Shown: positions 6,270 to 29,446 of the stretch, piece after piece
How positions within the stretch are numbered: the stretch's first letter is position 1
Layout: every line of letters begins with the position of its first letter
Origin: Candidatus Iainarchaeum sp.
GTDB lineage: Archaea > Iainarchaeota > Iainarchaeia > Iainarchaeales > JAZDEL01
DNA: 32,000 nucleotides
Reading direction: 5' to 3'
Assembly (NCBI GenBank): GCA_043808785.1
Contig: JAZDEL010000001.1
Span: forward strand, 30,001-62,000
Made by a program: the position numbers and the translations under genes
The notes under the pieces: generated by a model
Told to the model about the DNA's origin: nothing
Database searches by the model: none
What the model saw: the letters and a program-made list of their open reading frames with translations, nothing else

Positions 6270-6281
6270 ATGCAGGGGGGA
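6268..6281. repeat. att-like direct repeat, right copy (TTATGCAGGGGGGA)
   Basis: Identical to 2687-2700. Overlaps the 3' end of the intact tRNA-Leu. Confidence 0.6.
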
Positions 6282-12843: not shown

Positions 12844-13236
12844 ATGGTGCAATACCCTTCAGTGGAGAAAATAACCGAGATGAATGCGCTTGCCCTCAGT
12901 ATCATCTATGCCAAAAAGGCTGATGAGGCAAAGGTACTGAGCAGGGCAAAAATAACCGAAGTTATCGGGGATTGCGAGGGTTTTAACGGGGACATTTATG
13001 ATAAGGCAGTTGTATTGCTCAAGGGCATAGTCCAGAAGCATCCCTTTGCCAGCGGGAACAGGCGCACTGCATTCCTCGCAATGAAATATTTTTTGCTTGC
13101 CAACAAGGCAAGGCTTGGGATTGAAGATAACCCCGCGAATGCGAGAATCCTGCAGGGCGTAAGGGAAAATTATTATTCAGATGCGGAACTTAAGGAGTGG
13201 GTAAAAAATGGCAAAATCAGGCAATTCTCAAGATAA
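12844..13236 (+). CDS. doc: Doc (death-on-curing) / Fic-fold toxin
   Basis: HPFASGNRRTAF Fido motif in a ~130-aa protein. CTTTATAAAAA box ends about 20 nt upstream of ATG 12844. The 60-codon upstream extension from 12664 has no coding character. Confidence 0.8.
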   Translation: MVQYPSVEKITEMNALALSIIYAKKADEAKVLSRAKITEVIGDCEGFNGDIYDKAVVLLKGIVQKHPFASGNRRTAFLAMKYFLLANKARLGIEDNPANARILQGVRENYYSDAELKEWVKNGKIRQFSR

Positions 13237-13330
13237 GTTAAGGTGCAAAATAGTCTCGGAAGAGTTGGCGGAATTCAACAAGCTCGTGCGCGGGCACAGG
13301 AAACTGCTGGTTGCAATAGGCGAGCTTTAA
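13208..13330 (+). CDS. Candidate 40-aa ORF overlapping the doc 3' end
   Basis: ATG..TAA encodes MAKSGNSQDKLRCKIVSEELAEFNKLVRGHRKLLVAIGEL, which looks helical. Overlaps doc by 29 nt. Too short for the ORF track. No motif recognised. Confidence 0.25.
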   Translation: MAKSGNSQDKLRCKIVSEELAEFNKLVRGHRKLLVAIGEL

Positions 13331-13359
13331 CGCGCCCCGCGCCTGCGTCCGCCTCGTTT

Positions 13360-13377
13360 GCGCGGTTCGCGCGCGGT
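13360..13377 (+). repeat. GC hairpin 18-mer GCGCGGTTCGCGCGCGGT, copy 1
   Basis: Perfect repeat of 14405-14422. A near-identical inverted copy (one extra C) lies at 26082-26100. Confidence 0.7.
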
Positions 13378-13479
13378 CGGTTGCATTTTCCCCAATCCAC
13401 CTTACTGCGCGGCAAAACTCGCTTTGCCACATTTTTTAAGCAAATTGTTGCATTTATATGCCTGTTAGGGATGGTCTGG

Positions 13480-14382
13480 ATGAATGAGAAAGAGAAAATA
13501 ACAAAGCTGCATTCGGCGGCTAGGAAATACTGCTTCGACGGGCTGGAGCGCTTGCGTGTCAAAGGCAAACCAGGTGATGACGGTGCAAGCCTGCTTAGGG
13601 ATATGTTGTCTGACATGCTCAAGAATCTCTTTTGTGCCATTCTATTTCAGATTGAGAAGTTTGACCCTGATGAATTTGGCAAGCCCGGGCTTAATTCGCT
13701 GGAGGTCGCAAGGGCCAAATTCATTGAAGCGGGAAAAAAAGCGCAGTTTGCCAGCAACAGCTTAATTGCGGAAGGGGTGCTTAAAAGGCTTGACAATTAT
13801 GTTTGCGATGCAAAGGATACGCCGATAGCGAAGGCAAGTAATGAAATAATGTCGTTCTGCGATTATGTCGCCAACATTAGCGAAAATGATTTGGCCTGTG
13901 TAGAGGACGTGCCTTACCGGCACGTTTTGCCGGAAGCGATTGCCGATAAACAGTTCATGCGAATGGTTAAGAAATGGGATATGACGATTGAGAAATATCA
14001 TCCTGAGTATAGTGAACTTTTTTGGTGGCCGCTCGCCGAAACAAAATGCCGTGACTTAATTGCCTTGAATTCCGCCCCATTTGAGAAACGGGGGCTTGCA
14101 GGGATCAGGGATATTCTGAGAAAGCACGGCGTCAAAAGAGTGCTGGTGCTTAACTACGGCGATTATTCATATGAAGCAGACCTTTCCATTTTTGACCCCC
14201 GGGCGCAATATTATCCCCAATGGCGCGTGTTTTGCACATCTGAAAAAATGGACTGGGTAATTTACCTTTCCCATGAATCCTCAATCACATTCGGTGGCAA
14301 ATGGCTGGTAGCCAAGGTAAAGAAGGCATATCCTGAATGGAAGTCGCTGGTTTATAGCAGGCTGTTCGAAAATGTCGACTGA
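13480..14382 (+). CDS. Hypothetical protein
   Basis: Start placed at ATG 13480 (or 13471), just downstream of the TTTATAT box at 13453-13459. The ORF-track extension to 13243 crosses the repeat and terminator region. No motif recognised. Confidence 0.65.
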   Translation: MNEKEKITKLHSAARKYCFDGLERLRVKGKPGDDGASLLRDMLSDMLKNLFCAILFQIEKFDPDEFGKPGLNSLEVARAKFIEAGKKAQFASNSLIAEGVLKRLDNYVCDAKDTPIAKASNEIMSFCDYVANISENDLACVEDVPYRHVLPEAIADKQFMRMVKKWDMTIEKYHPEYSELFWWPLAETKCRDLIALNSAPFEKRGLAGIRDILRKHGVKRVLVLNYGDYSYEADLSIFDPRAQYYPQWRVFCTSEKMDWVIYLSHESSITFGGKWLVAKVKKAYPEWKSLVYSRLFENVD

Positions 14383-14426: not shown

Positions 14427-14604
14427 GGTTTGGGGGGTTTGCTGGGTTTGCCGCCCCAACCAAACTGATGCGAACCTGGCGCGGTGCGGGGGATTGCGAA
14501 ACGTGGCGAGGGGGCAGGCGTCCCCCCAGTATACAGCTAACCCCTAATGCGCCTTCCGGAAGATATTAAAACAGGTAATACATACTATTTGCAGATTCCA
14601 TGGA

Positions 14605-15933
14605 GTGAAACGGATGAACGGAACGCCCTTAACTCCAGAAAAAATCGAGGAATTTTACGGCGCAATGGAATTGCGAAAAGAGCTCTCGTTTAGCGAATTA
14701 TCCCCCTCCAAATCCAACTGGGGAACCCACTCATACCACTCATACCCTGCGAAGTTCGCGCCGCCTCTAGTAAAGTACCTTGTTGAAAACTACACCCGGT
14801 CAAAAGAAATCATATGGGATCCCTTCTGCGGCTCGGGCACAGTAAATGTTGAAGCACTTCGCAACAACAGAAACAGCATCGGCACAGACATAAACCCGAC
14901 AGCAATTTTAATATCGCGGACAAAGACGACCCCACTTAACCCGAAAAAACTGAAGAAGTACGGGGCAAGCCTTCTCAATAAAATTGAAAAACCAGGGCAC
15001 GGGGACGCAAAATATTTCACCAGGCAAGGAATATTAAACGGCAACCTCCCCGAACTCAGGCGGTGGTATGAAGAAGATGCATTGATGGATCTTGCAAAAA
15101 TTTTATTGGCAACTAAAAAAGTGGCTGCTCCCGAACCATATAAGCAATTTGCATTATGTTGCTTCTCATCCATATTAAAAAAAACTTCATATTGGCTAAA
15201 GACAAGTGTCAAGTCGCAATTTGATTACTCGCAAACTCCAGCAAAGCCAATTCGGTCTTTTGAGAACAGTTTTTGCCGCATGGAAAAAATGAATGAGGAT
15301 TTTTATAACGAATCAAAAAACAAAAAAACTTTTGCGAAGCTATACCGCCACGATGCCACAAAAGAAATGAAAAAATTCAGGAACAAAATTGACCACATAG
15401 TCACCAGCCCCCCATATTTAGTTTCTTATGAATATGGGGATATTTTTAGGCTCTCAACATATCTCCTTACTGGCTACGAGGGCCCCAATTACCTCAAATT
15501 CAAGCGGCAGTTTATCGGGACACGGCTTGAAAAAGAAGTCAAAAAAGAAGACTCAACACGCAAAATATTTAATGAGGCGGCAGGCATAGGTTCAGGCGAA
15601 TCCGAAGGAAAGGCGAAAAGTGCATTAAACTATTACCAAGAAATGGCTAACTTTTTCCAAAATGCAAAACTCCACTTAAGGAAAAAAGGCAAGCTTACGC
15701 TGGTCGTCGGGGATGCAGTAATAAATGGGCAAAAAGTGCCAAACGCATACATCCTCTCCAAAATAGCCGAAACTAAAGGGTTTGCAATAGAGGAAAAATT
15801 CAAGCGGGAAATAGGCAGGAAAAACCTGCCTAGCTTTAGGGATAAAACAACTGGCAAATTTGTGCACAAAAGGGACCCTAATGGGGTTTTGGCACATCCT
15901 GAGGAGTATATATTGGCGTTTAAGGTTGCATAA
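14605..15933 (+). CDS. N4-cytosine or N6-adenine DNA methyltransferase (motif I before motif IV)
   Basis: SYPAKFAPPLVKYLV..IWDPFCGSGT (AdoMet motif I) near residue 75 and IVTSPPY (catalytic motif IV) near residue 268, with a ~190-aa putative target-recognition region between them. The start may be ATG 14614. Confidence 0.85.
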   Translation: MKRMNGTPLTPEKIEEFYGAMELRKELSFSELSPSKSNWGTHSYHSYPAKFAPPLVKYLVENYTRSKEIIWDPFCGSGTVNVEALRNNRNSIGTDINPTAILISRTKTTPLNPKKLKKYGASLLNKIEKPGHGDAKYFTRQGILNGNLPELRRWYEEDALMDLAKILLATKKVAAPEPYKQFALCCFSSILKKTSYWLKTSVKSQFDYSQTPAKPIRSFENSFCRMEKMNEDFYNESKNKKTFAKLYRHDATKEMKKFRNKIDHIVTSPPYLVSYEYGDIFRLSTYLLTGYEGPNYLKFKRQFIGTRLEKEVKKEDSTRKIFNEAAGIGSGESEGKAKSALNYYQEMANFFQNAKLHLRKKGKLTLVVGDAVINGQKVPNAYILSKIAETKGFAIEEKFKREIGRKNLPSFRDKTTGKFVHKRDPNGVLAHPEEYILAFKVA

Positions 15934-15968
15934 TGGCATAATAATGTTTCCCAACAAATAGCATAAGC

Positions 15969-18533
15969 ATGGATACTGCGAATCAATTTACCCGCGTCGG
16001 CACAGAAACGTCAAAAATAGAAGTCAGAATTAGCTATAGGATAATTGACTTATTTTCCAATGGGTTGTATAAAAGCCCAAATAAGGCAATAGAAGAACTT
16101 GTGTCGAACTCTTTTGATGCAGGTGCAACAACTACTCATGTCATTTTAAGTCCCGAAGATTTGAAGTCAGGAGACAATGCAATTGCAGTAATTGACAATG
16201 GCATTGGCATGGATAAGCAAGGGTTAGAAGAACATTGGCAGATAGGGGTAAGCCGAAAAAGGGATGATAACTACCCCGCGCCAAAGGGTCGAAAACAAAT
16301 TGGGAGATTTGGAATTGGAAAATTGGCGACATATGTTTTAGCGAATGAACTTACTCACGTAACAAAAGTTGGGAAAAAATATTTTGCAACTACAATGAAC
16401 TATGGGGCGATTCCTGAGGGGGATAATGGGGGGATACATACAGATGAAAAAGTGGAGCTCCCACTAAGAGAACTAACTGAATCTGAAGCAAAGATGGCTC
16501 TTGAGCGATTTATTGGCGGAACTAAATTTAAAAAAACTGGGGCAAAACTTTTTGGGCCAGATGCCGAAGAAACTTGGACTGTTGCCATATTGTCTAATCT
16601 AAAAAAAATGGCAGAAGATCTAAAGATTGGTAGGCTTCGTTGGGTCTTAGAAACTGCGATGCCACTTAGGGACGACTTTAAACTATATCTTAATGGGCTC
16701 ATCGTAGAGCCATCAAAAATTAAAGAAAAAAGAATCGGCAAGTGGATAATCGGAAAAGACATAGTTGAGGTTCCTTCCCCCGCTACTGATAACCTAAAAC
16801 TTTCTGAAGATAGGAGCGTTAAAAAGGATTCAGAACTGAGGTATGGTTTGGAAAGTGAGTCTTTTGGAAGAGTTACGGGGTATGTTGAACTTTATGACGA
16901 TCTATTAACAAAAGGAAAAAATGTAGAGATATTTAGAAGTCATGGTTTTTTCGTATATGTGAGAGATAGGCTAATCAACATTGACGATGAATATTTTGGT
17001 ATAAGTAGCAACTCTTTAAGGCATGGTACATTTAACCGGTTTAGAGCCATACTTCATATTGATGAATTGGACGACGTATTGCGGTCATCAAGAGAATCAG
17101 TAAGTGAAGGTCCGCTGTATGAAGCTGTTAGGAATTTGTTAGCCGGATTGTTTAATTTTGTCCAAAAAAAACAGAAAGAAATAGAAGAAAAGTTAGAGAC
17201 AAGCACTCAAGCATCTGCCAGGCTAGCATCGGCACCAGATAGCTTAACTAAAAAGCCAATCCTCTACTTGTTAGATTTAGCTCTTTCTGGCAAATATTTG
17301 CCTAGGTATTTCATCATACCAAAAAAATTATCAGAAAGTGAAAAAAAATCATTTTTAGAGGAGTTTAAGAATTTAGGGTCAGATAAGTTTATAGAAAAAA
17401 TCGAAAAAATTGAAGAGCTAACTGAATCAGACAAACTAGCCCAGTTAGACATGGGAACTAAAACTTTAAGGATTAACATATTGCACCCTTTTGTTTCACA
17501 TTTTATTGATGAATATAATCGTTCAGCAAAAAATCAAGCGTTAGAATTATTTGCAATTGCTGAAGTTCTATTGGAATGTCAATTATTAGAATTCGGGCAT
17601 CAGCCAACAGTAGTAAGCGACATTCTAGGGGAGAGAGACGAGCTGTTAAGAAACTTAGGGCGATCTACGCCAAGAAGAAATGCATTACTCGTTTCGCAAG
17701 CACTCTTGGATTCGGTAACTAATGAACACCAATTTGAAGAGGAATTAGCGGCAGCATTTGACAGTTTAGGTTTTTATGACGCAATAAGGGTAGGCGGAAA
17801 AGGCAATCCTGACGGAATAGCAAAAGCATATTTATCGGCAGATGAAAAGGGTGGCGAGAAGGCGTATTTTGTAACTCTTGAAGCAAAAAGCAAAAAACAT
17901 AAAGGCAAGATAAGTAAAGATAGAGTCGACATAGCCACTATTGCGCTTCATCGCAAGAAGTATAAGGCAAATTTTGCAGTTGTTGTGGGGCCGGAGTTTC
18001 CAACGACAAGAGGGGAGAAATCAACACTAAGCCAACTGATAAAAGAAGACAGAGAAAAAAATCCCGGAAAAGGGATTACTCTAATTAAGCATGCAGATTT
18101 AGCAAAACTAGTTAGGTTATCTCCTGGAAAAATTACTCTAGATAAACTAAGGGAGCTTTTCGAGAAATGCAGCCTTCCAGAAGAGTCTAAAGCATGGATT
18201 GATAAGGCGTGCGAAGAGGACATAAAAAAAGCTCCTTATAAGGAGATTTTGAAGGCTATCGAAGTGGAGCAGAGAGACGCCCCTTATCAGCCAGTAGAAT
18301 ATGGAAGTATTTGCACAGCATTGAGAAAGGACTTTAAAATTGACCTTAAAAAAAATGAAGTAATTGATCTTTGCAAGGCGTTATCGAGAATGGCGCCAAC
18401 TTGTATTTTCGCGCGGGAAAATAGTGTAGAATTGAATGTAAGGTCTGACAAAATACTCAGTGCCATTAGTTCAGTAGTGGCTCAATATCCAGATGAAGAA
18501 CAAGACAAAATGAAAAAACTAGGCAACGTTTGA
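15969..18533 (+). CDS. GHKL (Bergerat-fold) ATPase fused to a C-terminal Mrr-like PD-(D/E)xK nuclease
   Basis: N box EELVSNSFDAG, G1 VIDNGIGM, G2 GRFGIGKLA. C-terminal FEEELAAAFDSLGF..GNPDGIAKAY..VTLEAKSKK (PD at 17808-17813, ExK at 17880-17888). Confidence 0.85.
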   Translation: MDTANQFTRVGTETSKIEVRISYRIIDLFSNGLYKSPNKAIEELVSNSFDAGATTTHVILSPEDLKSGDNAIAVIDNGIGMDKQGLEEHWQIGVSRKRDDNYPAPKGRKQIGRFGIGKLATYVLANELTHVTKVGKKYFATTMNYGAIPEGDNGGIHTDEKVELPLRELTESEAKMALERFIGGTKFKKTGAKLFGPDAEETWTVAILSNLKKMAEDLKIGRLRWVLETAMPLRDDFKLYLNGLIVEPSKIKEKRIGKWIIGKDIVEVPSPATDNLKLSEDRSVKKDSELRYGLESESFGRVTGYVELYDDLLTKGKNVEIFRSHGFFVYVRDRLINIDDEYFGISSNSLRHGTFNRFRAILHIDELDDVLRSSRESVSEGPLYEAVRNLLAGLFNFVQKKQKEIEEKLETSTQASARLASAPDSLTKKPILYLLDLALSGKYLPRYFIIPKKLSESEKKSFLEEFKNLGSDKFIEKIEKIEELTESDKLAQLDMGTKTLRINILHPFVSHFIDEYNRSAKNQALELFAIAEVLLECQLLEFGHQPTVVSDILGERDELLRNLGRSTPRRNALLVSQALLDSVTNEHQFEEELAAAFDSLGFYDAIRVGGKGNPDGIAKAYLSADEKGGEKAYFVTLEAKSKKHKGKISKDRVDIATIALHRKKYKANFAVVVGPEFPTTRGEKSTLSQLIKEDREKNPGKGITLIKHADLAKLVRLSPGKITLDKLRELFEKCSLPEESKAWIDKACEEDIKKAPYKEILKAIEVEQRDAPYQPVEYGSICTALRKDFKIDLKKNEVIDLCKALSRMAPTCIFARENSVELNVRSDKILSAISSVVAQYPDEEQDKMKKLGNV

Positions 18534-18551
18534 ATACGTGGGCGCTAAAAT

Positions 18552-19100
18552 ATGGACTCATTAAAACTTAGAAGTATTCTCGAAAATGGTGGCACTAAGG
18601 ATAACCGTCTTATTGCGGGGATTGAAAAATTTATAAATGATGAAAAGTTTCTTTTGGCCAATGACCTCAATGAGAGAACAATGTCTGCCAAACTGGCGCA
18701 ATACCTGCAAAAAGAATACTGCTCGGATTATTTTGTGGATTGCGAATACAACCGCATGTTGGACAAAAATGTAAACTATGCGGATAGTGCAAAACGACTG
18801 CCAGGTAATTATGATAAGACTGCGCCCACAACCGACTTAAAGGGGAAAACTGTCTACCCCGACATTATCATCCATAAGGAACGAAAAAGGAATAATGGCA
18901 ATTATATTGTTATTGAGGTAAAAAAGGAAGTGAATAACGAAGATAAAACACTTGATTTTTCAAAATTAAAAAAATTCACTAAGATATACTCGAGCCCTTA
19001 CTCATTAAATTACGAATGGGGCATTTATTTGGAATTTAATAAAGAAGAGTTGTCTGATGTCAGATTGTTCAAGAATGGAAAGCAAATAAATCCGGTCTGA
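18552..19100 (+). CDS. Small stand-alone PD-(D/E)xK nuclease-fold protein
   Basis: VDCEYNR .. YPDIIIH (18858-18863) .. VIEVKK (18915-18923). Lies 18 nt downstream of the GHKL gene. Confidence 0.65.
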   Translation: MDSLKLRSILENGGTKDNRLIAGIEKFINDEKFLLANDLNERTMSAKLAQYLQKEYCSDYFVDCEYNRMLDKNVNYADSAKRLPGNYDKTAPTTDLKGKTVYPDIIIHKERKRNNGNYIVIEVKKEVNNEDKTLDFSKLKKFTKIYSSPYSLNYEWGIYLEFNKEELSDVRLFKNGKQINPV

Positions 19101-19110
19101 AAAATTAGCG

Positions 19111-19254
19111 CTATTTCCTCAGCACCAATTCAATCTGCTTATTTTTCGGCTCCAGCTCCAGTTCATCGCCATCCTTCAGCCCAAGTAGGGTCAGCGTGTC
19201 CTTCGGGAGCAGTATGCCGAGCGAGTTCCCTATTTTCCTTATCTTGACCTTCAT
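19111..19254 (-). CDS. AbrB/MazE/SpoVT-type swapped-hairpin DNA-binding protein (47 aa)
   Basis: MKVKIRKIGNSLGILLPKDTLTLLGLKDGDELELEPKNKQIELVLRK matches the canonical SpoVT-AbrB pattern. Not in the ORF track because it is under 60 aa. Confidence 0.75.
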   Translation of the reverse strand: MKVKIRKIGNSLGILLPKDTLTLLGLKDGDELELEPKNKQIELVLRK

Positions 19255-19322
19255 GTTATAACTGTTGTAATAACTACCTTTAAAAGGTTTTCGTGTTATT
19301 ACATAAGTAATAACTTAAAAGG
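19255..19322. promoter_or_regulatory. Operator-like GTAATAAC repeats with palindromic TATA box
   Basis: GTTATAAC (19255-19262), GTAATAACTACCTTTAAAAGG (19267-19287), inverted GTTATTAC (19295-19302), GTAATAACTTAAAAGG (19307-19322). CCTTTAAAAGG lies about 25-30 nt from the abrB-like ATG. Confidence 0.55.
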
Positions 19323-19324
19323 TC

Positions 19325-19498
19325 ATGGTTAAAATGGACCCCTCCGTCTCCCGTTTCATCTTCGGCACAATCTGCTGGCTCCCCCTCGGCTTCTGCGTGG
19401 CGCTGGCGAGATGGGGGCGTATGGAGGAGGCTTATGCACTTGCGAAGTACAGCGCGGTGTTTTTGGCGGGGGCCAGCATAGCGGGATGGCTTGGTTAA
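19325..19498 (+). CDS. Candidate 57-aa membrane protein
   Basis: MVKMDPSVSRFIFGTICWLPLGFCVALARWGRMEEAYALAKYSAVFLAGASIAGWLG. Its last 12 codons recur at 22013-22048 with only synonymous or conservative changes, which argues for translation. Confidence 0.5.
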   Translation: MVKMDPSVSRFIFGTICWLPLGFCVALARWGRMEEAYALAKYSAVFLAGASIAGWLG

Positions 19499-19505
19499 AA
19501 AGCTT

Positions 19506-19538
19506 GCACCGGAAATGCACCCTCGGGAGATTTTTAAA
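19506..19538 (+). promoter_or_regulatory. Conserved 20-mer + TATA module, copy 3
   Basis: GCACCGGAAATGCACCCTCG (17/20 identical to copies 1 and 2), then 5 nt, then TTTTTAAA. Upstream of dcm. Confidence 0.5.
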
Positions 19539-19608
19539 TGGAACCAAATATTTTATTTTTATCGGACAGCCTCTGCCTCGATGTAAAAAATCCTTTGGGG
19601 GTGTCTGA

Positions 19609-20826
19609 ATGAATGATTTAAATAGTTTCGGAACAGTTACTGTTATGATGGCGAAGGGACACAAAAAAATGGGCCTGAACTTCATCGACCTTTTCGCGGG
19701 AGCCGGCGGGCTGTCGTGTGGCCTGGAAAGGGCGGGGTTAAATTGCATACTGGGCGTTGACTTCGACAGGGCGGCGATGGAGACCTTCAAAAGGAACCAC
19801 CCGAACGCCGAGGTCTTCGTGGGCGACATAGCGAAGCTCGACGATGAAACCGCGCTTAGGCTGACAAAAAACAGGGAGGTCGACCTCGTGTGTGGCGGCC
19901 CGCCGTGCCAGGGCCTTTCAACGGTGGGCAAGGGGATTCCAAACGACCCCCGAAACCTGCTTTTTCTGCAGTTTGTGAGGCTGGTGAAACTTTTTTCCCC
20001 GAAATACATAATGCTGGAAAATGTGACCGGGTTGCTGGGCAAAAAGAACCGGAACATCCTTAATGGCATAATGTCCGAGTTCGAAAAACTGGGCTATCAT
20101 CTCGATGTCCAGGTGCTGTCGGCGCACCATTACGGCGCCCCGCAGAAAAGAAGGAGGACGATTTTCATAGGGAACAGGATGGGCTACGCGAATATCTTCC
20201 CCGAAATAATGTTCGATGCGCACGACGCATGCTTGCCCCCCGCCAAGACGGTCGGCGACGCGTTCAAATCCCTGGGCATGGGGGACGGCGGGACGCATAA
20301 CCACGATGTCGGCGGCGCATCAATTCCCGAGGGCACAGAAAGGGAGATTATCAGGCGCATCCCAGAGGGGCGGTATATCCGCTATGAAAGCGACGAACTC
20401 GAGCTTCTGCCGAAGGAACTGCATCTTGGCGTTGACTGGCGCACAATTCAGGAGGGCAGGCTGCGGCAGGCGAAATACAGGAGGCTCCACAGGGATGAGC
20501 CCTCCCCGACAATAATGACCGACGGGCACACATACTACCACCCGATTGAGGACAGATTCATCACCGTGAGGGAGGGCGCGGCTATACAGGGCTTTCCCAA
20601 TGATTTCGTGTTCGAGGGCACGGTCTCGCAGCAGTGGAGGCAGGTCGGCAACGCCGTTCCGCCGCCGCTTGCGGAGGCGATCGGGAAGGCGATACTGAAA
20701 ATGGAACTCGAGAAAAATGGAACAATACCGCGGACCAAGGATTTGGAGGGGATACGGAGCCACGCGTTCAATTACAAAACAAAATCAAACACAAACAGGG
20801 GACAACAGAAATTATTGGTTAGATAA
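19609..20826 (+). CDS. dcm: DNA (cytosine-5)-methyltransferase
   Basis: Motif I FIDLFAGAGG, IV GGPPCQGLS, VI ENV, VIII QKRRRTIFIG, X GNAVPPPLA. Confidence 0.92.
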   Translation: MNDLNSFGTVTVMMAKGHKKMGLNFIDLFAGAGGLSCGLERAGLNCILGVDFDRAAMETFKRNHPNAEVFVGDIAKLDDETALRLTKNREVDLVCGGPPCQGLSTVGKGIPNDPRNLLFLQFVRLVKLFSPKYIMLENVTGLLGKKNRNILNGIMSEFEKLGYHLDVQVLSAHHYGAPQKRRRTIFIGNRMGYANIFPEIMFDAHDACLPPAKTVGDAFKSLGMGDGGTHNHDVGGASIPEGTEREIIRRIPEGRYIRYESDELELLPKELHLGVDWRTIQEGRLRQAKYRRLHRDEPSPTIMTDGHTYYHPIEDRFITVREGAAIQGFPNDFVFEGTVSQQWRQVGNAVPPPLAEAIGKAILKMELEKNGTIPRTKDLEGIRSHAFNYKTKSNTNRGQQKLLVR

Positions 20827-20840
20827 AATGCATAATATCG

Positions 20841-21554
20841 CTAGGGCTCTATATCGGGAAATCTCGTGTCCGATACGTCCTCAATATTAAGGGGGGATTC
20901 CTTTGGCTTGCCAAGTACCTTTAAAACGGCATAGAAGGTATAATTGTGGATTGGAAAACTGTTAATTACCTTGGCTCTTAGTCGCAGGGTAAACCTTGTA
21001 TCAAAGGGGGGCGCGCCCAGATTGGCCGGATCACACCTTAAACTATAGAACCCATAACCATCGCCAACTTGCATATAATAACAGTTTTTAAGCTCGTAAA
21101 ATTTGAAAAGAGCATCGGAGGTGGTTGTAAGGCTCGTGTCTTCAAAGTTAATCTGGTCCTGATGCCTGTCTTCAGCCGTCAATTCCCCCTTATTTTTGAC
21201 AAATTTATTTGGCTTGAATTTTTTGCCGTTCGCCACTTTCAGCGCCCCAAGAGCGGTATATTTCCTAGTCAACGGATCATCTTTTGACCAAGTCCAGCCG
21301 CCCCCTTCGGACCACTTAAAAGTCCTTTGACCATAATCCGCCTTAAGGTCCGCCTTTATCTCAAGGTTGTATTTGTTGCCTCCATGAATAAAAATGGCGT
21401 CAACACCACCGCCGGCTCCTGCCCGTTGAAAGCCGGGAGCCAAAACGCCCCTCTCACGCATAATCTCGACCACCTTATCCTCATAGGCATCGCCCTTGTT
21501 GTATGGCGCCTTTTTCTTCATGGGCTTTTTGTTAAGATCCAACTGCATTGGCAT
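20841..21554 (-). CDS. Putative type II restriction endonuclease (PD-(D/E)xK-like)
   Basis: Convergent with dcm (14-nt gap). GGVDAIFIHGGNKYNLEIKA fits D-x12-ExK. Start placed at Met 21554, where TGATG overlaps the vsr stop. The ORF-track start at 21611 would overlap vsr by 58 nt. Confidence 0.6.
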   Translation of the reverse strand: MPMQLDLNKKPMKKKAPYNKGDAYEDKVVEIMRERGVLAPGFQRAGAGGGVDAIFIHGGNKYNLEIKADLKADYGQRTFKWSEGGGWTWSKDDPLTRKYTALGALKVANGKKFKPNKFVKNKGELTAEDRHQDQINFEDTSLTTTSDALFKFYELKNCYYMQVGDGYGFYSLRCDPANLGAPPFDTRFTLRLRAKVINSFPIHNYTFYAVLKVLGKPKESPLNIEDVSDTRFPDIEP

Positions 21555-21946
21555 CAACCCATAATTTTTCCCATTGAACGATTGAAATCTTTCCTCAAAT
21601 TGTGTTCCCAAATGACAATTACCCTGAACCCAAGTTTTCTTAAAGTGCTCCTGACGGCTTTATCCCGCCTTAAATTTGCCATTATCTTCCTTTTCCAAAA
21701 GGCCCTGTTCGATTTGGGCGCCCTGTAGCATTTTGGGCAGGCGTGCCAGAAGCAGCCGTGAAGAAGGATGGCGGCATTCGTGCCGTGAATCAGGATGTCG
21801 GCGCCGGGCGCAGCTTTCGGGTGCATGGTGTGGCGCACCCTGTGCCCCTTGAGGAAATTGTGGGCTCTTCGCTCGGGCGATGTCCATTTGTAACGGATTT
21901 TGGACATTATTTTGCTTCGTTTCGCCTTTGAGAACTTGTCAACCAC
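21554..21946 (-). CDS. vsr: Very-short-patch repair endonuclease
   Basis: SKIMSKIR..TSPE, DILI..AILLHGCFWHACP, SNRAFWKRKIMANLRRD and VIVIWEH are all Vsr signatures. Confidence 0.9.
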   Translation of the reverse strand: MVDKFSKAKRSKIMSKIRYKWTSPERRAHNFLKGHRVRHTMHPKAAPGADILIHGTNAAILLHGCFWHACPKCYRAPKSNRAFWKRKIMANLRRDKAVRSTLRKLGFRVIVIWEHNLRKDFNRSMGKIMG

Positions 21947-21985
21947 GATAGTATTTCAGGGGAAAACAATAAAAGCAGTGTTTTT

Positions 21986-22048
21986 CGATATGCAAATTGC
22001 GGCGTTTTGTTCCTGGCGGGGGCGAGCTTGGCGGGGTGGCTTGGATAG
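21986..22048 (+). pseudogene. 3' fragment of a paralog of the 19325-19498 small ORF
   Basis: RYANCGVLFLAGASLAGWLG* aligns with KYSAVFLAGASIAGWLG*. No start codon follows the in-frame TGA at 21929-21931. Confidence 0.5.
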
Positions 22049-22212
22049 TAGTGATGTTACGCCAGTAGGTAATATGCGCGAAACGAAATCGTAAAAATAG
22101 GGTTTGCCTTCCTCTCAGGCTGGGAAAGTGGGTCGCGCTGATCCGGCGCATAGCCGCTCGTGAACTTGGGTGAAGTCATAACGAAGCAATATTGCTAACT
22201 TGTTTTAAAGTG

Positions 22213-23886
22213 TCATTTTTCCCCTTTTACTATTGTTTTTACTCTGCTTTTTATGTTTTCACGAGTCGTTTCTAATTTCTTTTTTGCTTGGTCAGTTAAA
22301 CGCGCCGTGTGCATAACTGCGTCCCTAATTGGTTTATATTCGTTTGCATCTCTTGAAAGACAAGCTTCTTTTATTGGGTCGCGCTTGTCTACTAAATTGG
22401 CTAAGCCATCCATGGATAAATAGCTTGTGTCATCAGGGCTTTTCCTGAGAGGAATGCTAATGTTCCCTTTATTTTTATTATTCTTTTCTTTATCTTTGTA
22501 TTTGTTTATTTCCTTAACTGCCTCACCACTTAAGTTGATTTTATTTTTTTCAATATGTTTTCTAATAAGATTTTCAGCAATGAAGCATTCTGCATATGAT
22601 GTAAAATTAAATTGCGCATCATTGGCTAACTCGTCTACCCATTTATCAACTGTTGATTTTTCTTTCTTGTCGTCATCATTTTTATCTTCATAATCTTTTG
22701 AGACTGCGTTAAACAACCCTCTGGATTTACGCTCTTTTTCGGTACGCCTTTGGTTTTCTAGGTCTCCATCCTGCCTATGTTTTACTCTCCAATCATCCCA
22801 ATCATCAAGAATTTTCGCTATGGTCTTCTCCATGTCTTTTAGGAAAGTGGAGTATTTTTCATCGTTAGCCACTATTCCTTCTCTGGCTGTTGCAAATCTA
22901 TCTATTTTATCTTCATCAAGCTCGTTAAAATGAATCTGACCATATAAATAGCTTTCGACAACTCTGGCAGTGGGGATATGTTTCAGTATATCTCTTTCTC
23001 TGAGTCGCCCATTGACAAAAAGGTCGACCCCAACCTTTTCGCCTTCAGAACCAAAAATTTTCAAGTCTTTAGGAAGCATAACCGAAGCTATAAAACCGCT
23101 CACCTTTTCATCCATGCTGATTATTTTGGATTCTTTTAAGTTCTTGAGTTTTTCATCAATATACTCGTCTTTGAATGTGTTAATATTCCATAAAAATTGG
23201 GTTTTTTCTGCTAAAACTTTTAGGTCATCAAGAGATATTTCTTCGTCGTTTAAAAATATCTTAAATGAGTCGTCAATTAAGGAAAACCTAAAATATAATG
23301 CAATAACTTTCCTAAGATGTTCCGATGTGTTTTTTATGCCATCATTTATTTTGTCAAAATAAATAATCGTCCCTTTTTTGTGGTCAACAGTATATCTCTT
23401 AACCAGATCTAAATCGAATTTTTCCAGCGGATATTCTTGTGGCTTTAAGTTATCCGTAATTGCATCAGTTAACCCAGAATTGTCAATAGTCCCCCCTACA
23501 TACTCGCCATTTTCAGTCTTCGTAACGACCATGACTTTTTCGGCACAAGATAATAGAGCCAACTTGCCTATGCCTTTTCGTCCAATATATGGCCTCTTGC
23601 AAATAGGTGAACTATTTCGGGTAATTTTCCCGACTTGTCTTTTGGTATACCCGATCAATAAAAATTTATCTTGAAAATCATTTGACGTCATCCCCTCTCC
23701 ATCATCCTTTATCACCAAGCCATCAGTATTTTTATCTATGTAAATCCACACATTCTTGGCGCAGGCATCCCATGAGTTGGAGATAGCTTCTCCGAGAACA
23801 GTTACAAAATTTCTATATAGATTTCTCCCAAGATGATTCAAGACACTTAATGAAATATTGAATGTGAATTTTTCATTATCCTCCAT
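22213..23886 (-). CDS. GHKL (Bergerat-fold) ATPase with C-terminal HEPN-like Rx4H motif
   Basis: N box GEAISNSWDA, G1 VIKDDGEGM, G2 GRKGIGKLA. The middle region is homologous to the 15969-18533 protein. C-terminal KPIRDAVMHTARLT (R521..H526, nt 22309-22326). Confidence 0.8.
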   Translation of the reverse strand: MEDNEKFTFNISLSVLNHLGRNLYRNFVTVLGEAISNSWDACAKNVWIYIDKNTDGLVIKDDGEGMTSNDFQDKFLLIGYTKRQVGKITRNSSPICKRPYIGRKGIGKLALLSCAEKVMVVTKTENGEYVGGTIDNSGLTDAITDNLKPQEYPLEKFDLDLVKRYTVDHKKGTIIYFDKINDGIKNTSEHLRKVIALYFRFSLIDDSFKIFLNDEEISLDDLKVLAEKTQFLWNINTFKDEYIDEKLKNLKESKIISMDEKVSGFIASVMLPKDLKIFGSEGEKVGVDLFVNGRLRERDILKHIPTARVVESYLYGQIHFNELDEDKIDRFATAREGIVANDEKYSTFLKDMEKTIAKILDDWDDWRVKHRQDGDLENQRRTEKERKSRGLFNAVSKDYEDKNDDDKKEKSTVDKWVDELANDAQFNFTSYAECFIAENLIRKHIEKNKINLSGEAVKEINKYKDKEKNNKNKGNISIPLRKSPDDTSYLSMDGLANLVDKRDPIKEACLSRDANEYKPIRDAVMHTARLTDQAKKKLETTRENIKSRVKTIVKGEK

Positions 23887-24919
23887 AGTTAACGCCCCCT
23901 ATGTGGGCTCTCACAGTTTTGGCTATCGCCCGCCCAAGTTTTACGGGAACCGCGTTTCCGATATGCCTCGCCAACCTCGTAATCATGTACTTATCTTTTG
24001 GGTCAATAAACTTATAACTTTTAGGAAACGACTGAAGAATCGCGGCTTCCCTCAATGATATTGCCCTGTCCTGTTCTGGATGCCCAAAGCGACCATTCCC
24101 CAAGCCTATGCACTGAGTAGTTATTGTTGGCGATGCTCCATCCCAATTCATCCTCCCATAAACCGAGCCGAATGATTTCCCCCCTTTCTTTTTGTGACAG
24201 GACAAAACTAGAGTTTTATCCCAATCACGCCAGCCGCCCCCCATGGGGGTGGCAACTATCCTTTTCTTGTTCAGTTGAGACAATTTCCTTGAGCGATGCA
24301 ATTTGTCTTTTGGGGAGGTTTCCCCATCGCTAATTTTTTCGAGCTTGCATATTGCTTGCCTGACTGTTTTAGGATTTTTATGAGTAGGGGCGATTAATTC
24401 AAGTTCGCCGAGTTTGGAAGCCAACAAGACAAGTCTTTTCCTTGTTTGAGGCACCCCGTAGTGCATAGCATTTACTGTTGAATAAGTTACATGGTAGTCC
24501 AATGCTTCCAAATTCTGTACAAAATCATGGAACACTTTTGCCCTCATTAACTGAGGAACATTCTCCATTGACACAATTTCGGGCTTGACCTCTTCGATCA
24601 GCCTTGAAAATTCATACAGCAAACCCCATTTATCATCTCGCCTCTTTTTAATGTTGTATGTTGAAAAAGGTTGGCAGGGAGCGCAACCAACCAAAACTTT
24701 AATGGCGTTCTTTGGGTAGAGCGTTTTAAGTTCTTCAGAAGATGTCTCCTGAATTGGTTTGTTAATAAACTTAGAGTTATTGTTGGCTTCATATGCAAAC
24801 TTACAAGAAGCATCGGAATCTATGCCTGCCACGACGTTAAAATTTTCCTTTACGAAACCATGGGTTAGGCCACCTACCCCGCAGAACACGTCTACAACAG
24901 CGACAGATTTGGCTTCCAT
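23876..24919 (-). CDS. dcm: DNA (cytosine-5)-methyltransferase
   Basis: Motif I VVDVFCGVGG, IV GCAPCQPFS, VI MENV, VIII QTRKRLVLLA, X GNAVPVKLG. Overlaps the downstream GHKL gene by 11 nt. Confidence 0.92.
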   Translation of the reverse strand: MEAKSVAVVDVFCGVGGLTHGFVKENFNVVAGIDSDASCKFAYEANNNSKFINKPIQETSSEELKTLYPKNAIKVLVGCAPCQPFSTYNIKKRRDDKWGLLYEFSRLIEEVKPEIVSMENVPQLMRAKVFHDFVQNLEALDYHVTYSTVNAMHYGVPQTRKRLVLLASKLGELELIAPTHKNPKTVRQAICKLEKISDGETSPKDKLHRSRKLSQLNKKRIVATPMGGGWRDWDKTLVLSCHKKKGGKSFGSVYGRMNWDGASPTITTQCIGLGNGRFGHPEQDRAISLREAAILQSFPKSYKFIDPKDKYMITRLARHIGNAVPVKLGRAIAKTVRAHIGGVNYGG

Positions 24920-24969
24920 CCTACGTTATCAGCATCAATAGGTTTTAATTAATATCGATGCGGGCAAAT

Positions 24970-25359
24970 CTACGATAAAGCACGTTGTATTCTTTTTGGT
25001 AGAATTCCCTTTTTTAGCTCGTGTTCCCAAATACGAATTATCTTCCACCCTTCCAACTCTAATGCTCGCGTTATCTCCTTGTCCCGCTCCATGTTTCTTT
25101 TAAGTTTCTTGCTCCAGAATCGCTTATTTGACTTAGGGATAGTTCCATGCAGGGGGCACCCGTGCCAAAAACAACCGTCAACCATGATTGCAATTTTTTT
25201 CGATACGAATGCGATATCTATTTTATATTGCGAATAGTTTACTCTAAATCGGCAACCTCGCCTAAATAGCATTGAGCGCAATGCCAATTCGGGCGCAGTG
25301 TCCTTTTGCTTTACTGATCGCATTATTTTACGCCTAACGGCTTTCGAGACGTTATCCAT
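24970..25359 (-). CDS. vsr: Very-short-patch repair endonuclease
   Basis: RRKIMRSVKQKDTAPE, IDIAF..IAIMVDGCFWHGCP, SNKRFWSKKLKRNMERD, IIRIWEHEL. Confidence 0.9.
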   Translation of the reverse strand: MDNVSKAVRRKIMRSVKQKDTAPELALRSMLFRRGCRFRVNYSQYKIDIAFVSKKIAIMVDGCFWHGCPLHGTIPKSNKRFWSKKLKRNMERDKEITRALELEGWKIIRIWEHELKKGILPKRIQRALS

Positions 25360-25416
25360 ATTCTAAAATAAGATGAAAATCATTAAGTACGTTCCTTTCT
25401 TATTTGGGGGGTTCGC

Positions 25417-26040
25417 CTACCCCAGCCTCTCTTTAATCGCTTTCAGGGAAACGAACTGTTCCCTTTCTATTTCATCGAGGCGGAAGGAGATGTAGGCAAC
25501 TTTCCTCTGCATGCTTGGGATAAGGATGAATTCAAGGGCATTTACCCTGCGCTTGGTTTTTTCTATCTCCCTTATAAGGCGCTTCATTATGTTCTCGGTT
25601 TTGGCGAGTTCAATTGATAACTGTAAATATTCCTCGAAGCGCTGGGCGCATTCATCAAGGCGCGCGGAGGTGCTCATAAGGCTGTAGCCCCTTTCGGATG
25701 GCTTGCGGATGAAATCTGCTTTGCTTATTTCAGCGATTTTCACGCCCATTATGTTCCTTTCCCCAACGGAAAGGTTGGAGTTTTCAATTACGGAGAGGGA
25801 AGCTGCCTCAAGCTCGAGGGAACCCTCGTTCATTGTTGCTTTTGCGAGAGCGGAGTAAGATTCTGCGGCTTTCCTGTCAAGCTCGCCGCGGATGTCCTTT
25901 GCTTCCTTCATTATGCGGAAGAATTCCGCAATAAGGATGTCGCGCTTCTGCCTGAGAAGTTCGTGCCCCTTGCGCGCGAGGTTTATTTTCTGCCTTGTTT
26001 CTATGAGTTCAAGGCGGGTTATTTTCATTTCGTCTTCCAT
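25417..26040 (-). CDS. atpD: A-type ATP synthase subunit D
   Basis: KITRLELIETRQKINLARKGHELLRQKRDILIAEF is typical of V/A-ATPase subunit D. Last gene of the operon. Confidence 0.9.
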   Translation of the reverse strand: MEDEMKITRLELIETRQKINLARKGHELLRQKRDILIAEFFRIMKEAKDIRGELDRKAAESYSALAKATMNEGSLELEAASLSVIENSNLSVGERNIMGVKIAEISKADFIRKPSERGYSLMSTSARLDECAQRFEEYLQLSIELAKTENIMKRLIREIEKTKRRVNALEFILIPSMQRKVAYISFRLDEIEREQFVSLKAIKERLG

Positions 26041-26139
26041 GCGAAAAACATCCTGCCCCGCGTGCGTGGTTTTACGGGGTTACCGCGCGCGCAACCGCGC
26101 CGCGAACCCTGCAAACCAATGCACGGGTTTTTGTTTTTT

Positions 26140-27522
26140 TTATTTTTTATTTTCGCGTTTGCCGTACTTCTTGATGTAATCTAACTTAACCCTCTTCAGT
26201 TCGCTCTCCGGCACTGAACCAAGCAGTTCCCAGCCAAGTTCGAGTGTGCCTTCTATGCTGCGGTTCTCCGTGTTCTTCTGCGCAACGAACTGTTTCTCGA
26301 ATGCATCCGCAAACTTCAGGTGCACGCGGTCTATATCAGTGAGTGCTTCCTCCCCCACAACAGCGCTGAGGCTGCGGAGTTCGCGGCCGCGGGCATAGGA
26401 TGCGTATAACTGGTTTGCAGTGTCCCTGTGGTCCTCGCGGGTTTTTTCCTTTCCTATGCCGAGGTTCATAAGCCTGCTTAAGGAGGGTAACACATCAATA
26501 GGCGGGTAGATGCCCTTCCTGTGGAGGTCGCGGCTTACCACGATTTGGCCCTCCGTGATGTAGCCTGTTAAATCAGGAATTGGGTGTGTAATGTCATCGG
26601 AAGGCATTGAGAGGATACCGAGCTGGGTAACACTACCCTTCCTTCCTTTCACAACACCTGCGCGTTCATAGAGCGTGGCTAAATCCGTGTACATATACCC
26701 AGGATAACCGCGCCTTCCGGGAACTTCCTTGCGCGCACCTGCAATTTCGCGCAATGCTTCGCAGTAATTGGTCATGTCCGTGATTATGACAAGGACGTGC
26801 ATGTTTTTCTCATAGGCCAAATATTCAGCCGTGGTTAAAGCCATGCGCGGTGTTATTAACCTTTCAACACTCGGGTCGTTTGCCAAATTCAGGAAAAGAA
26901 CAGCGCGTGAAAGAGCGCCTGTTTTCTCGAACGAGTTCATGAAGAAGTATGCGTCCTCATATGTGATGCCGATTGCCGCAAACACCACGGCAAACTTCTC
27001 ATCCTTGCCGAGAACCTTTGCCTGGCGCGCAATCTGCACAGCAACCTCGTTGTGCGGCAAACCTGCGCCTGAAAATATGGGCAATTTCTGCCCGCGGACC
27101 AGCGAGTTCATGCAATCAATGGCACTTACCCCAGTCTGGATGAAATCGTGCGGCTTTTCGCGCGTGTATGGGTTAATAACCATGCCAATGATGTCGCGCT
27201 TCTCCTTTGAAATTATCGGCGGGCCGTTGTCTATGGGGTTCCCCAAACCGTCGAATATCCTGCCGAGCATTTCCTCCGAAACCGCGAGTTTCATGGTTTC
27301 GCCGAGGAAGCGGACGCGCGTATTGCTTACATCAATGCCCTGCGTTGTCCCGAAAACCTGTATAACGGCGTTCCCTTTCGAGCTTTCGAGTATTTCACCT
27401 TTCTTCCTTTCGCCATTTGGGAGCATTATTTCAACAAGTTCCTTGTACCCCACATCCTTCACTCCCTCGACAAACACGAGGGGGCCCTCGATGTTCGAAA
27501 CTGTTTTGTATTCCTTTATCAT
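26140..27522 (-). CDS. atpB: A-type ATP synthase subunit B
   Basis: 460 aa. [17 protein letters not shown]-terminus and [21 protein letters not shown] core. Confidence 0.95.
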
Positions 27523-27553
27523 TCCTGCTCACCCCTGAAAATAAAAATAAATG

Positions 27554-27608
27554 AAAAAACCAAACAAAACAAACCCGTGAAACGGGTTCCGTGTTGGTTT
27601 TGGTTTTT
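27554..27608 (-). other. Imperfect long hairpin plus T-rich tract inside the atpA-atpB spacer
   Basis: Core AACCCG-tgaaa-CGGGTT (27572-27588) with outer arms AAAAACCAAA/TTTGGTTTTT. On the coding (minus) strand it is followed by TTTTTTCATTTATTTTTATTTT and then GGGGTGAGCAGGAATG at the atpB start. Confidence 0.5.
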
Positions 27609-27640
27609 GTTTATTTTGTTTTTTTGTTCAAGGCAGAAGT

Positions 27641-29410
27641 TCATTTCTTTCCCCCCTTTCCCGCGCCTATCAGCGAGTCGGCTTCCTTATCCACGGCGGA
27701 CATTGTTTCCTTTGCGTGCTTTTCGAACCCTTCCTCCTTCTGCTCCTTCATGCGGGAAATTACGTCCTTAACCTTCATTCCTGCGATGAATTTTGATTTT
27801 ACCCCAAGATCGGAGGCTTCAAGCGCCTTCTTGTGGAAGTGCAGTATGGTTTTCAGCATCAGGTACTGCTTCTTCATGGAGGTGTATGTGTCAATTTCAT
27901 GGTATGCGGACTGCTGGAGGAAGTCCTCCCTAATCATTTTGGAGGTTTCCAAAACAACCTGCTCCCTTTCGGGCAGGGCATCTGGCCCGACCAACTGCAC
28001 AATTTCCTGAAGTTCCGCCTCTTTCTGGAGCAGTGCCATTGCTTCCGCCCTGAGTTCGGGGAATTCAGGGGAAACCATCTTGGAGTAACTCTGCGCAAGT
28101 GTGTTCAGGTAGAGCGAGTAACTTTTCAGCCAGTTTATGGACGGGAAGTGCCTCTTCTGCGCGAGTTTTGAATCAAGTGCCCAGAATGCCTTGGTTACGC
28201 GCAATGTGTTCTGCGAAACAGGTTCTGTTATGTCTCCCCCGGGAGGGCTGACAGCGCCGATAATGCTGACAGAACCGTTCCTCTTGCCTTCCGAACCTAA
28301 GCAAATAACTTTTCCCGCCCTTTCATAGAACTCGGCAAGCTTGCGCGCAAGGTAGGCAGGATAGCCTTCCTCCCCCGGCATTTCCTCCATCCTGCTGGAA
28401 ATTTCCCTCATTGCTTCCGCCCAGCGTGATGTTGAATCTGCCATAAGGGCAACATCATATCCCATGTCCCTGTAATATTCCGCGAGGGTAATCCCCACAT
28501 AGATGCTTGCTTCGCGGGCAGCAACAGGCATGTTCGATGTGTTCGCAAGCAAAATTGTCCTTTTCATCAGCGGTAACCCTGTTTTCTGGTCTATCAGTTT
28601 GGGGAATTCATCAAGCACTTCTGTCATTTCGTTCCCCCTTTCGCCGCAGCCGACATAAACAACAATGTCCGCATCGCTCCACTTTGCCAACTGGTGCTGT
28701 GTAACGGTTTTGCCTGTGCCAAAGCCCCCAGGAATCGATGCGCTCCCGCCTTTCGCAATCGGGAAGAATGTGTCAAGTATCCTCTGCCCTGTAATCAGCG
28801 GCTCGATAGGAGGGAGCTTCTCCTTGTAAGGCCTTTCATGCCTCACTTCCCAGCGCTGCATCATGGTTAATTTTTCTTTCTTGCCGTCATTATTCACAAC
28901 GCAGACAGTATCCTCCACAGTGAAACTGCCGCCCTCTATGGATTCGACCTTTCCTTTCACTCCCTTCGGCACGAGGATTTTGTGGTTAACAACCTCGTTC
29001 TCCTGAACCGTGCCTATAATGTCCCCTTCCGCAACATTCTGCCCTTTTTTCGCGGCTGGCACAAACTTCCATTTCTTTTCCCTGTTGAGCGCGTTTGCAG
29101 TAACACCGCGGCCGATGAAGTCGGACTTCTTTGCAAGCACGTCAAGCGGCCTCTGTATCCCGTCATAAATGGATGAAATAAGCCCGGGGCCTAATTCAAC
29201 ACTCAGCGCCCTGCCTGTTGAAACAACGGGTTCGCCGGGCCTTAACCCCGAGGTTTCCTCGTAAACCTGTATGTTTGCCTTGTCGCGGTCGATAGATATG
29301 ATTTCGCCTATAAGCTCTTCCTTCCCCACCCTTACAACGTCGTACATTTTCGCATCCTGGAAGTTGTCGGCAACAACCACAGGGCCGCTTATTTTGAATA
29401 TCTGTGCCAT
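27641..29410 (-). CDS. atpA: A-type ATP synthase catalytic subunit A
   Basis: Walker A GGFGTGKT and [10 protein letters not shown]. Start chosen at [14 protein letters not shown] (GGTGATGA 5 nt upstream). An alternative Met lies at 29437. The length is normal, so there is no intein. Confidence 0.95.
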
Positions 29411-29446
29411 CCCATCATCACCCTTTCGTTTTTCCAATCCTTTTTA

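Follow-up and report, generated by a model that had tools for sequence, protein, structure and literature searches.

A 32,000-nucleotide (nt) stretch of the Candidatus Iainarchaeum sp. assembly GCA_043808785.1 (contig JAZDEL010000001.1, positions 30,001–62,000; hereafter the window, numbered from its first letter) carries a minus-strand operon for the repair endonuclease Vsr, a C5 cytosine DNA methyltransferase (Dcm), and a protein of 557 amino acids (aa) with a GHKL ATPase head, which we refer to as the effector. Profile comparisons identify the effector as a relative of the BbrUII/HgiDII restriction enzymes in which the PD-(D/E)xK module has been exchanged for an unrelated helical domain. 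This domain probably has a HEPN fold, judging by its conserved motifs and predicted structure. Whether the operon is a three-gene methylation-linked defense or addiction module of the restriction-modification (R-M) type, with an effector that cuts RNA, we put at about even. The operon and the parts of its third product are laid out as follows, all on the minus strand:

24970–25359, minus strand: vsr, the first gene of the operon, 129 aa

23876–24919, minus strand: dcm, the C5 cytosine DNA methyltransferase gene, 347 aa

22213–23886, minus strand: the GHKL/HEPN-like effector gene, whole open reading frame (ORF) including the stop codon, 557 aa

23876–23886, minus strand: 11-nt overlap between the dcm stop and the effector ATG, ATGGAGGATAA

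23287–23868, minus strand: GHKL (Bergerat-fold) ATPase domain, residues ~7–200, from the HATPase_c_3 match and motifs I–IV

22867–23286, minus strand: middle (transducer/S5-like) domain, residues ~201–340, from structural matches of the AlphaFold2 (AF2) model

22675–22866, minus strand: helical linker, residues ~341–404

22216–22674, minus strand: C-terminal domain, residues ~405–557, predicted to be all-helical and HEPN-like from an AF2 model of the domain alone

22561–22575, minus strand: Ex3[KR] motif, E438-N-L-I-R442, translating to ENLIR

22309–22326, minus strand: R[D/N]x3H motif, R521-D-A-V-M-H526, translating to RDAVMH

All three genes lie at the coordinates given by an initial annotation of this DNA, and its identification of the first two products was confirmed by matches in Pfam and NCBIfam. 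Vsr, a very-short-patch (T:G mismatch) repair endonuclease, gave an E-value of 3.3e-19 with the Pfam Vsr family; with TIGR00632 it reached 4.5e-38 and 130 bits, the cut-off being 98. The methylase matched PF00145 from profile position 2 to 322 of 324 (6.3e-63) and the PADLOC model MTase_II (5e-88). The 11-nt overlap between the methylase stop and the effector start, also part of the initial annotation, was found by direct reading of the sequence, with the junction running ...AACTATGGAGGATAATGAA. Such an arrangement indicates translational coupling of the two genes, and the methylase/effector junctions at homologous loci likewise abut or overlap. The 557-aa protein itself is matched at 100% identity by a protein from a Candidatus Diapherotrites archaeon metagenome-assembled genome (MAG).

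The motifs and an above-threshold profile match together place the 557-aa protein among the GHKL (Bergerat-fold) ATPases. Pfam HATPase_c_3 aligned to residues 27–126 with 67 bits, well above its cut-off of 25, and the three motifs quoted in the initial annotation in support of an ATPase head are present at residues 33–41 (EAISNSWDA), 59–66 (IKDDGEGM), and 102–110 (GRKGIGKLA). Across homologues there is no or almost no variation at their key residues: E33, N37, and D40 of motif I; D61-x-G63-x-G65 of motif II; and G102-x-x-G105-x-G107 of motif III, to which G172-T173 of motif IV can be added. The full-length AF2 model is of medium confidence, with a predicted local distance difference test score (pLDDT) of 70, and Foldseek searches with it returned GHKL proteins only: the N-terminal and middle domains of Hsp90/TRAP1, the MutL N-terminal domain (9n2k_B), and MORC2 (9cdh_B), with E-values of 1e-8 to 1e-9 and alignments spanning 380–480 columns. 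The likeness to MutL, MORC, and Hsp90 is one of predicted fold over residues ~1–340; these proteins differ from the effector in their C-terminal domains and in their biological roles. The order predicted by the medium-confidence model, with an S5-like/transducer domain behind the GHKL domain, is that of the paraMORC proteins, and the middle domain is common to the HgiDII family. A strongly conserved motif, conceivably a DNA contact, a metal site, or an ATP sensor, closes the S5-like domain (residues ~296–340, 22867–23000) and reads Y-x-Y/V-G-Q/E-I-H-x-x-x-L-D ... D-R-F/A-T-S-x-R-E; it is common to the window family and the HgiDII family (alignment columns ~330–360), and members of the window family vary little or not at all at its residues H319, D329, and R335. 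The linker that follows was modeled with helices at 343–369 and 383–399 and is the last part held in common with BbrUII/HgiDII.

The initial annotation presented the third gene as a GHKL ATPase that takes the place of a restriction endonuclease. This description has to be abandoned, because residues 3–396 are homologous to the characterized BbrUII/HgiDII enzymes and share their chassis. The NCBIfam model NF050001, "BbrUII/HgiDII family restriction enzyme", aligned to residues 7–378 over model positions 1–372 of 659 (E=4.5e-86); the whole-protein score of 290 bits lies below the equivalog cut-off of 550, so the effector is not itself a member. Two PADLOC REase_II models likewise matched the N-terminal part only (7.5e-36), and whole-protein scans of Pfam, NCBIfam, PADLOC, and PHROGs put a name to no other part. 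For comparison, six annotated plasmid genes with a similar N terminus were used as the HgiDII-type set. Two of these, scanned against NF050001, scored 801 and 651 bits and are true members; a C5 methylase adjoins five of the six, and vsr is also near two. Aligned with hhalign, the window family and the six HgiDII-type proteins matched with a probability of 100% (E=3e-70) over residues 3–396 only. The two groups have in common the GHKL domain, the S5-like middle domain, and the first linker helices; in both, the gene comes immediately behind that for a C5 methylase, and vsr is often there too.

They part at the C terminus. The six HgiDII-type proteins continue for ~255 aa, made up of a helical region and a PD-(D/E)xK-like module, whereas the effector has a helical domain of ~150 aa. 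The HgiDII-type proteins end in an invariant HLWLLDPSW-R ... RxD ... (D/E)LK, which reads as a PD-(D/E)xK signature; the C terminus of R.HgiDII was left unassigned behind its GHKL domain in an earlier study (Orlowski & Bujnicki 2008, PMC2441816). No similarity between the window C terminus and the HgiDII-family C terminus was detected (hhalign, 1%). A suspected correspondence between "FENLK" of the HgiDII family and "SENLIR" of the window protein was not supported by the hhalign comparison. Nor was any PD-(D/E)xK, HNH, or helicase family matched in the 557-aa protein by Pfam, NCBIfam, or PADLOC, in agreement with the initial annotation. The tail is a distinct, unannotated C-terminal domain family on an HgiDII-type chassis and belongs neither to the HgiDII family nor to the Ymh group discussed below.

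The case for a HEPN fold starts from two motifs. An Rx4H sequence in the last ~60 aa had been singled out in the initial annotation as the signature of a HEPN RNase; R521 and H526 are indeed there and conserved, but the tail proved to be a discrete domain of ~150 aa, and the second motif, E438-N-L-I-R442, had gone unremarked. Modeled alone from a 43-sequence alignment, the domain gave a pLDDT of 93.7 and a predicted template modeling score (pTM) of 0.83. Helices were predicted at 412–447, 454–473, 486–499 (short), 510–525, and 532–555, giving four long helices with a ~35-residue insert containing two short helices after the second. The described hallmarks of HEPN domains (Anantharaman et al. 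2013, PMC3710099) are an Rx4-6H motif with a polar N, D, or H after the R, an upstream Ex3[KR], and extra sequence inserted between the second and third helices. Each was found in this domain at the level of sequence or predicted secondary structure. The helices predicted for the domain would also suit the all-alpha core of four helices that HEPN domains have. The Rx4H site of HEPN domains is placed at the "end of helix-3 / start of the loop to helix-4" (PMC3710099); in the window protein the motif falls where the penultimate helix (510–525 in the model) ends, just before H526.

Conservation singles out the same residues. Among relatives at 36–57% identity, the sole invariant residues of the domain are Y431, E438, N439, R442, R521, and H526, and five of these six fall in the two hallmarks, E438-x3-R442 and R521-[D/N]-x3-H526. 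Neither R521 nor H526 varies in 33 close or in 36 divergent homologues, and ENxxR and R[DN]xxxH are both kept in all 80 of the genomic loci described below. As judged from these alignments, the conservation of Rx4H that the initial annotation depended on is real and exceeds chance.

Several results weigh against a HEPN RNase. Pfam scans of the isolated C terminus at E<=10 gave no above-threshold match in 20 close and 43 divergent members. The best match, HEPN_Swt1, reached 17.8 bits against a cut-off of 27.5 in 2 of the 43 divergent members; it was in register with Rx4H, and its E-value was no better than those of the noise families DP, S1CSD-TOTE-2, and DUF6214. Searched with Foldseek, neither PDB nor BFVD yielded a match for the domain model (lowest E-values 3.4 and 2.4, respectively), and profile searches of PDB sequences recovered no HEPN protein, the only matches of the sequence and profile searches being Hsp90, ferritin, and AF_1212, at E>0.05. 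Compared by hhalign with an alignment of Ymh, a HEPN family found in similar proteins, the tail scored 1%; that alignment was shallow, as a search seeded with a Neisseria Ymh ORF yielded three proteins, too few for a good profile. The Ymh family (PF09509/TIGR02391) was matched by none of the 63 scanned members, with the Neisseria ORF as positive control (2.9e-25). A search of 1.84 billion representative proteins with a profile of the domain produced 240 matches, confined to the window family; the 150 of them that were listed were all of the ~550–590-aa window architecture or fragments of it, and among these 150 there was no bridge to other families. In addition, the closest characterized relatives of the effector cut DNA, not RNA, and no part of the 557-aa protein could be recognized as a reader of DNA sequence or methylation. 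Short helical bundles with inserts are a blind spot of Foldseek and similar methods, and because of this the missing matches lower the claim to HEPN membership without excluding it. The HEPN signature of the initial annotation is therefore upheld at the level of motifs and secondary-structure topology, but not by any HEPN profile at threshold or structural match.

More than 4,500 relatives of the effector were found in a set of 5.8 billion proteins. The top 120 all matched at full length and are ~550 aa and 59–66% identical. Relatives are present in 377 GTDB species genomes of archaea and bacteria and range over DPANN, Thaumarchaeota, Planctomycetota, Bacteroidota, Chloroflexota, and bacteria of the candidate phyla radiation (CPR). 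Gene neighborhoods were counted in the 80 best genomic loci (L001–L080). The synteny anticipated in the initial annotation is strong: 77/80 loci contain a C5 methylase, which in 70/80 lies immediately upstream of the effector with the same orientation, and vsr occurs in 45/80, in 29/80 immediately downstream of the effector. The genes usually run dcm, effector, vsr; in the window, vsr comes first and is followed by dcm and then the effector. At one locus (L056) the first scan scored no methylase, and a divergent methylase lies downstream. At the core are a methylase and an effector, a pairing that genetically marks R-M and addiction modules, and the methylase is tightly linked to a candidate restriction gene, as in Type II R-M systems. 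Vsr was considered as the real nuclease partner and rejected, with vsr missing from 35/80 loci. Because of the recurrent vsr linkage, the window methylase is argued to act on DNA, not RNA; the same linkage led us to reject a Dnmt2-like activity on RNA. Throughout these loci, which cover archaea and distant bacterial phyla, the effector is ~56–63% and the methylase 45–59% identical to that of the window. Such near-uniform identity across distant groups points to recent and frequent horizontal spread of one conserved specificity type.

One Planctomycetota MAG (L078) carries an intact member of the family, with both motifs, and no C5 methylase within its 6-kb flanks. DISARM-like genes precede the effector there (L078:40–7674), encoding a 1096-aa helicase, an MZB/DUF1998 protein, and a PLD nuclease. 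The window methylase also scored 3e-82 against PADLOC DrmMII. Taken with the L078 context, this score suggests that the family may be linked to DISARM.

The architecture has precedents in computational work. Iyer et al. (2008) described proteins of the paraMORC type, with GHKL and S5 domains and interchangeable C-terminal effectors, from R-M operons that also encode Vsr and cytosine methylases, a neighborhood like that counted here for the window family. R.HgiDII and four other GHKL restriction-enzyme subfamilies were delineated in the same year, among them R.NmeAIP with a Hypoth_Ymh tail (Orlowski & Bujnicki 2008, PMC2441816). Ymh was later assigned to HEPN and noted as fused to paraMORC ATPases in R-M neighborhoods, with a PrrC/RloC-like role proposed (Anantharaman et al. 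2013, PMC3710099). Our literature searches found no experimental study of paraMORC-HEPN or Ymh systems. The statement of the initial annotation that no vsr-dcm-GHKL-HEPN system has been characterized therefore stands in respect of experiment, but the concept had already been predicted in 2008 and 2013. On this comparison the window system would work like the predicted paraMORC-HEPN class, and the idea of an R-M-linked GHKL-HEPN protein is not new.

The R.NmeAIP type comes closest in layout, with a GHKL head, a small helical Rx4H tail, and a C5 methylase and vsr as neighbors; like the window system, it is without experimental characterization in the literature found. An N. gonorrhoeae locus (L083:3098–6063) shows it placed between the C5 methylase and vsr, in the order dcm, GHKL, Ymh (HEPN), vsr, with the Ymh part matching PF09509 (2.9e-25) and carrying the motif FRNPVQH. 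Both the methylase gene and the GHKL-Ymh gene are frameshifted in this locus, which makes it a decayed R.NmeAIP-type copy; the record is 2.17 Mb long, is listed as a "plasmid" in PLSDB, and looks like a mislabeled chromosome. The R.NmeAIP type differs from the window family in having PF09509 as its tail, to which the window tail showed no match or alignment, and the GHKL parts of the two are only ~27% identical. VcSduA (paraMORC3; GHKL plus a DUF4263 PD-(D/E)xK domain, Shedu type I-D) likewise has a GHKL head and a fused C-terminal effector, and its ATPase and nuclease mutants both lose phage defense, experimental evidence that its GHKL head controls the nuclease fused to it (PMC12137116). Unlike the window protein, it has a DNA-nuclease effector and is encoded by a single gene with no linked methylase. 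PrrC and RloC, the analogy drawn in PMC3710099, resemble the window effector in combining a nucleoside triphosphatase with a C-terminal HEPN RNase (putative in the window) in an R-M setting. Their ATPase is of the ABC type, not GHKL, and their partner is a Type I R-M system with a DNase of its own, whereas in the window the GHKL protein is the only candidate effector.

GHKL proteins of the MutL/MORC/Hsp90 type undergo ATP-dependent N-terminal dimerization, and HEPN RNases have composite dimeric sites and a metal-independent chemistry that requires a 2'-OH. From these properties, and from VcSduA, we infer how the window system may work, including the ATP-gated RNase and the abortive-infection logic suggested in the initial annotation. 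The effector would act as a dimer; once ATP is bound, its heads would close to form a clamp like that of MutL or MORC on DNA without the cognate cytosine methylation. Clamping would then make the paired C-terminal domains active, with Ex3R and R[D/N]x3H forming a metal-independent RNase site, and the cutting of transcripts or of tRNA/rRNA would lead to growth arrest or abortive infection. The co-translated methylase would keep host DNA silent, and Vsr would repair the T:G mismatches that arise from deamination of 5-methylcytosine. The methylase itself may be a specificity or guard partner, because no reader could be identified in the effector. A broader version of this proposal is more tentative and, in our view, somewhat on the doubtful side: that the family is a widespread R-M system in which self is read from cytosine methylation, an ATP-driven MutL/MORC-like clamp on unmethylated DNA switches on an unclassified HEPN RNase in place of DNA cutting, and the whole, a form of abortive infection gated by methylation, travels as a two-gene mobile module.

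The strongest alternative to an RNA-cutting effector is a conventional DNA-cutting restriction enzyme, its tail being a novel module for DNA recognition and cleavage; the operon would then be a Type II R-M system of the ordinary sort, possibly modulated by ATP, with Vsr. The two-gene methylase-restriction logic fits this, with dcm directly upstream in 70/80 loci and the genes overlapping; the N-terminal two-thirds are homologous to true restriction enzymes, the sister family has a DNA nuclease in the same slot, and the HEPN assignment was confirmed by no fold or profile search. The residues of the tail argue otherwise. E438 is the sole strictly invariant acidic residue of the domain (position 522 is D or N), no PD-(D/E)xK, HNH, GIY-YIG, or PLD signature is present, the domain is predicted to be all-helical, and the invariant set is exactly that of the metal-independent HEPN RNases, whose chemistry needs a 2'-OH. 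We consider DNA cleavage unlikely, though less so than the two explanations that follow.

If the tail is an RNase, it could instead be held latent by physical binding to the methylase, in the manner of PrrC, and fire when the methylase is lost or inhibited, with toxin-antitoxin or addiction behavior. Such a guard role would match the proposal made for R-M-linked HEPN domains (PMC3710099). The overlapping, translationally coupled genes would suit it in suggesting stoichiometric co-production, as would the lack of an identified DNA reader in the effector. It would, however, leave a MutL/MORC-type clamp with all ATPase motifs conserved without a role, and the intact Planctomycetota member has no methylase nearby. 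We also know of no inhibitor of a C5 methylase that could serve as a trigger, and we regard this explanation as rather improbable. Least probable of all is a non-nucleolytic accessory, an ATP clamp of the MutL/MORC kind that aids Vsr repair or compacts or silences unmethylated DNA and uses the tail only for dimerization or nucleic-acid binding: the GHKL and S5 folds are predicted to resemble MutL and MORC2, E. coli MutL stimulates Vsr (cited in PMC2292703), and catalytically inactive HEPN-like domains exist (PMC3710099), but 35/80 loci lack vsr, in contrast to the nearly constant dcm, the strictly invariant Ex3R and R[D/N]x3H look catalytic, and the sister family consists of restriction enzymes.

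The operon stands at one end of a low-GC (guanine plus cytosine) island at ~14500–25400, where GC is 0.34–0.45 against ~0.5 in the flanks. The island contains three methylase-linked modules and runs right up to the operon for an A/V-type ATP synthase. Neither an integrase nor a tRNA flanking the island was seen, the nearest tRNA gene being a tRNA-Leu at 6270–6355. The other genes in and around the island are:

12664–13236, plus strand: Fic/DOC family protein, just outside the island (PF02661, 2e-8)

13243–14382: 379-aa ORF after the Fic/DOC gene, with no family match

14605–15933, plus strand: N6/N4 DNA methylase (PF01555, 1e-19), first gene of a second methylase-linked GHKL module at 14605–19100, plus strand

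15969–18533, plus strand: 854-aa GHKL protein (HATPase_c_3, 3.7e-19; weak match to the restriction-endonuclease family Mrr_cat at residues 585–674, E=0.008)

Within 14605–19100, plus strand: 182-aa protein, last of the second module (PADLOC PD-Lambda-3_A, 1.2e-20)

19609–20826, plus strand: dcm2 (PF00145, 4.7e-74), part of a third R-M-like set at 19609–21946

20841–21611, minus strand: 256-aa ORF, convergent to dcm2 (phrog_26930, 1e-16; no Pfam, NCBIfam, or PADLOC match)

21554–21946, minus strand: second vsr, with a 58-nt overlap with the 256-aa ORF

25417–29437, minus strand: genes for the D, B, and A subunits of the A/V-type ATP synthase

By its domain matches, the second module looks like a paraMORC3/VcSduA-like GHKL-nuclease fusion, standing beside a GHKL protein with another tail. 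In the third set, the 256-aa protein is a candidate restriction enzyme of orphan fold. ARAGORN called a "tRNA-???" with a 2-base anticodon inside this ORF (21385–21480, minus strand), which is almost certainly a false positive.

The family to which the effector belongs is large, unnamed, and compact at two or three genes, and it is unusually well conserved, at ~57–66% identity among groups as far apart as DPANN archaea, Planctomycetes, and CPR bacteria; because it is large, well conserved, and compact, it is an easy experimental target. It would put to the test the 2013 paraMORC-HEPN prediction, and with it the question whether an R-M-type system can use an RNase effector. The HgiDII-type DNase tail and the window tail on the same chassis also form a natural module-swap pair for the study of how GHKL proteins gate their effectors. 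Should the tail cut DNA instead, it would represent a new nuclease fold for restriction enzymes, which would be useful if less surprising. If the tail is an active RNase under the control of DNA methylation, R-M would not be confined to DNA cleavage, and epigenetic self-marking would be directly tied to immunity of the abortive-infection type.

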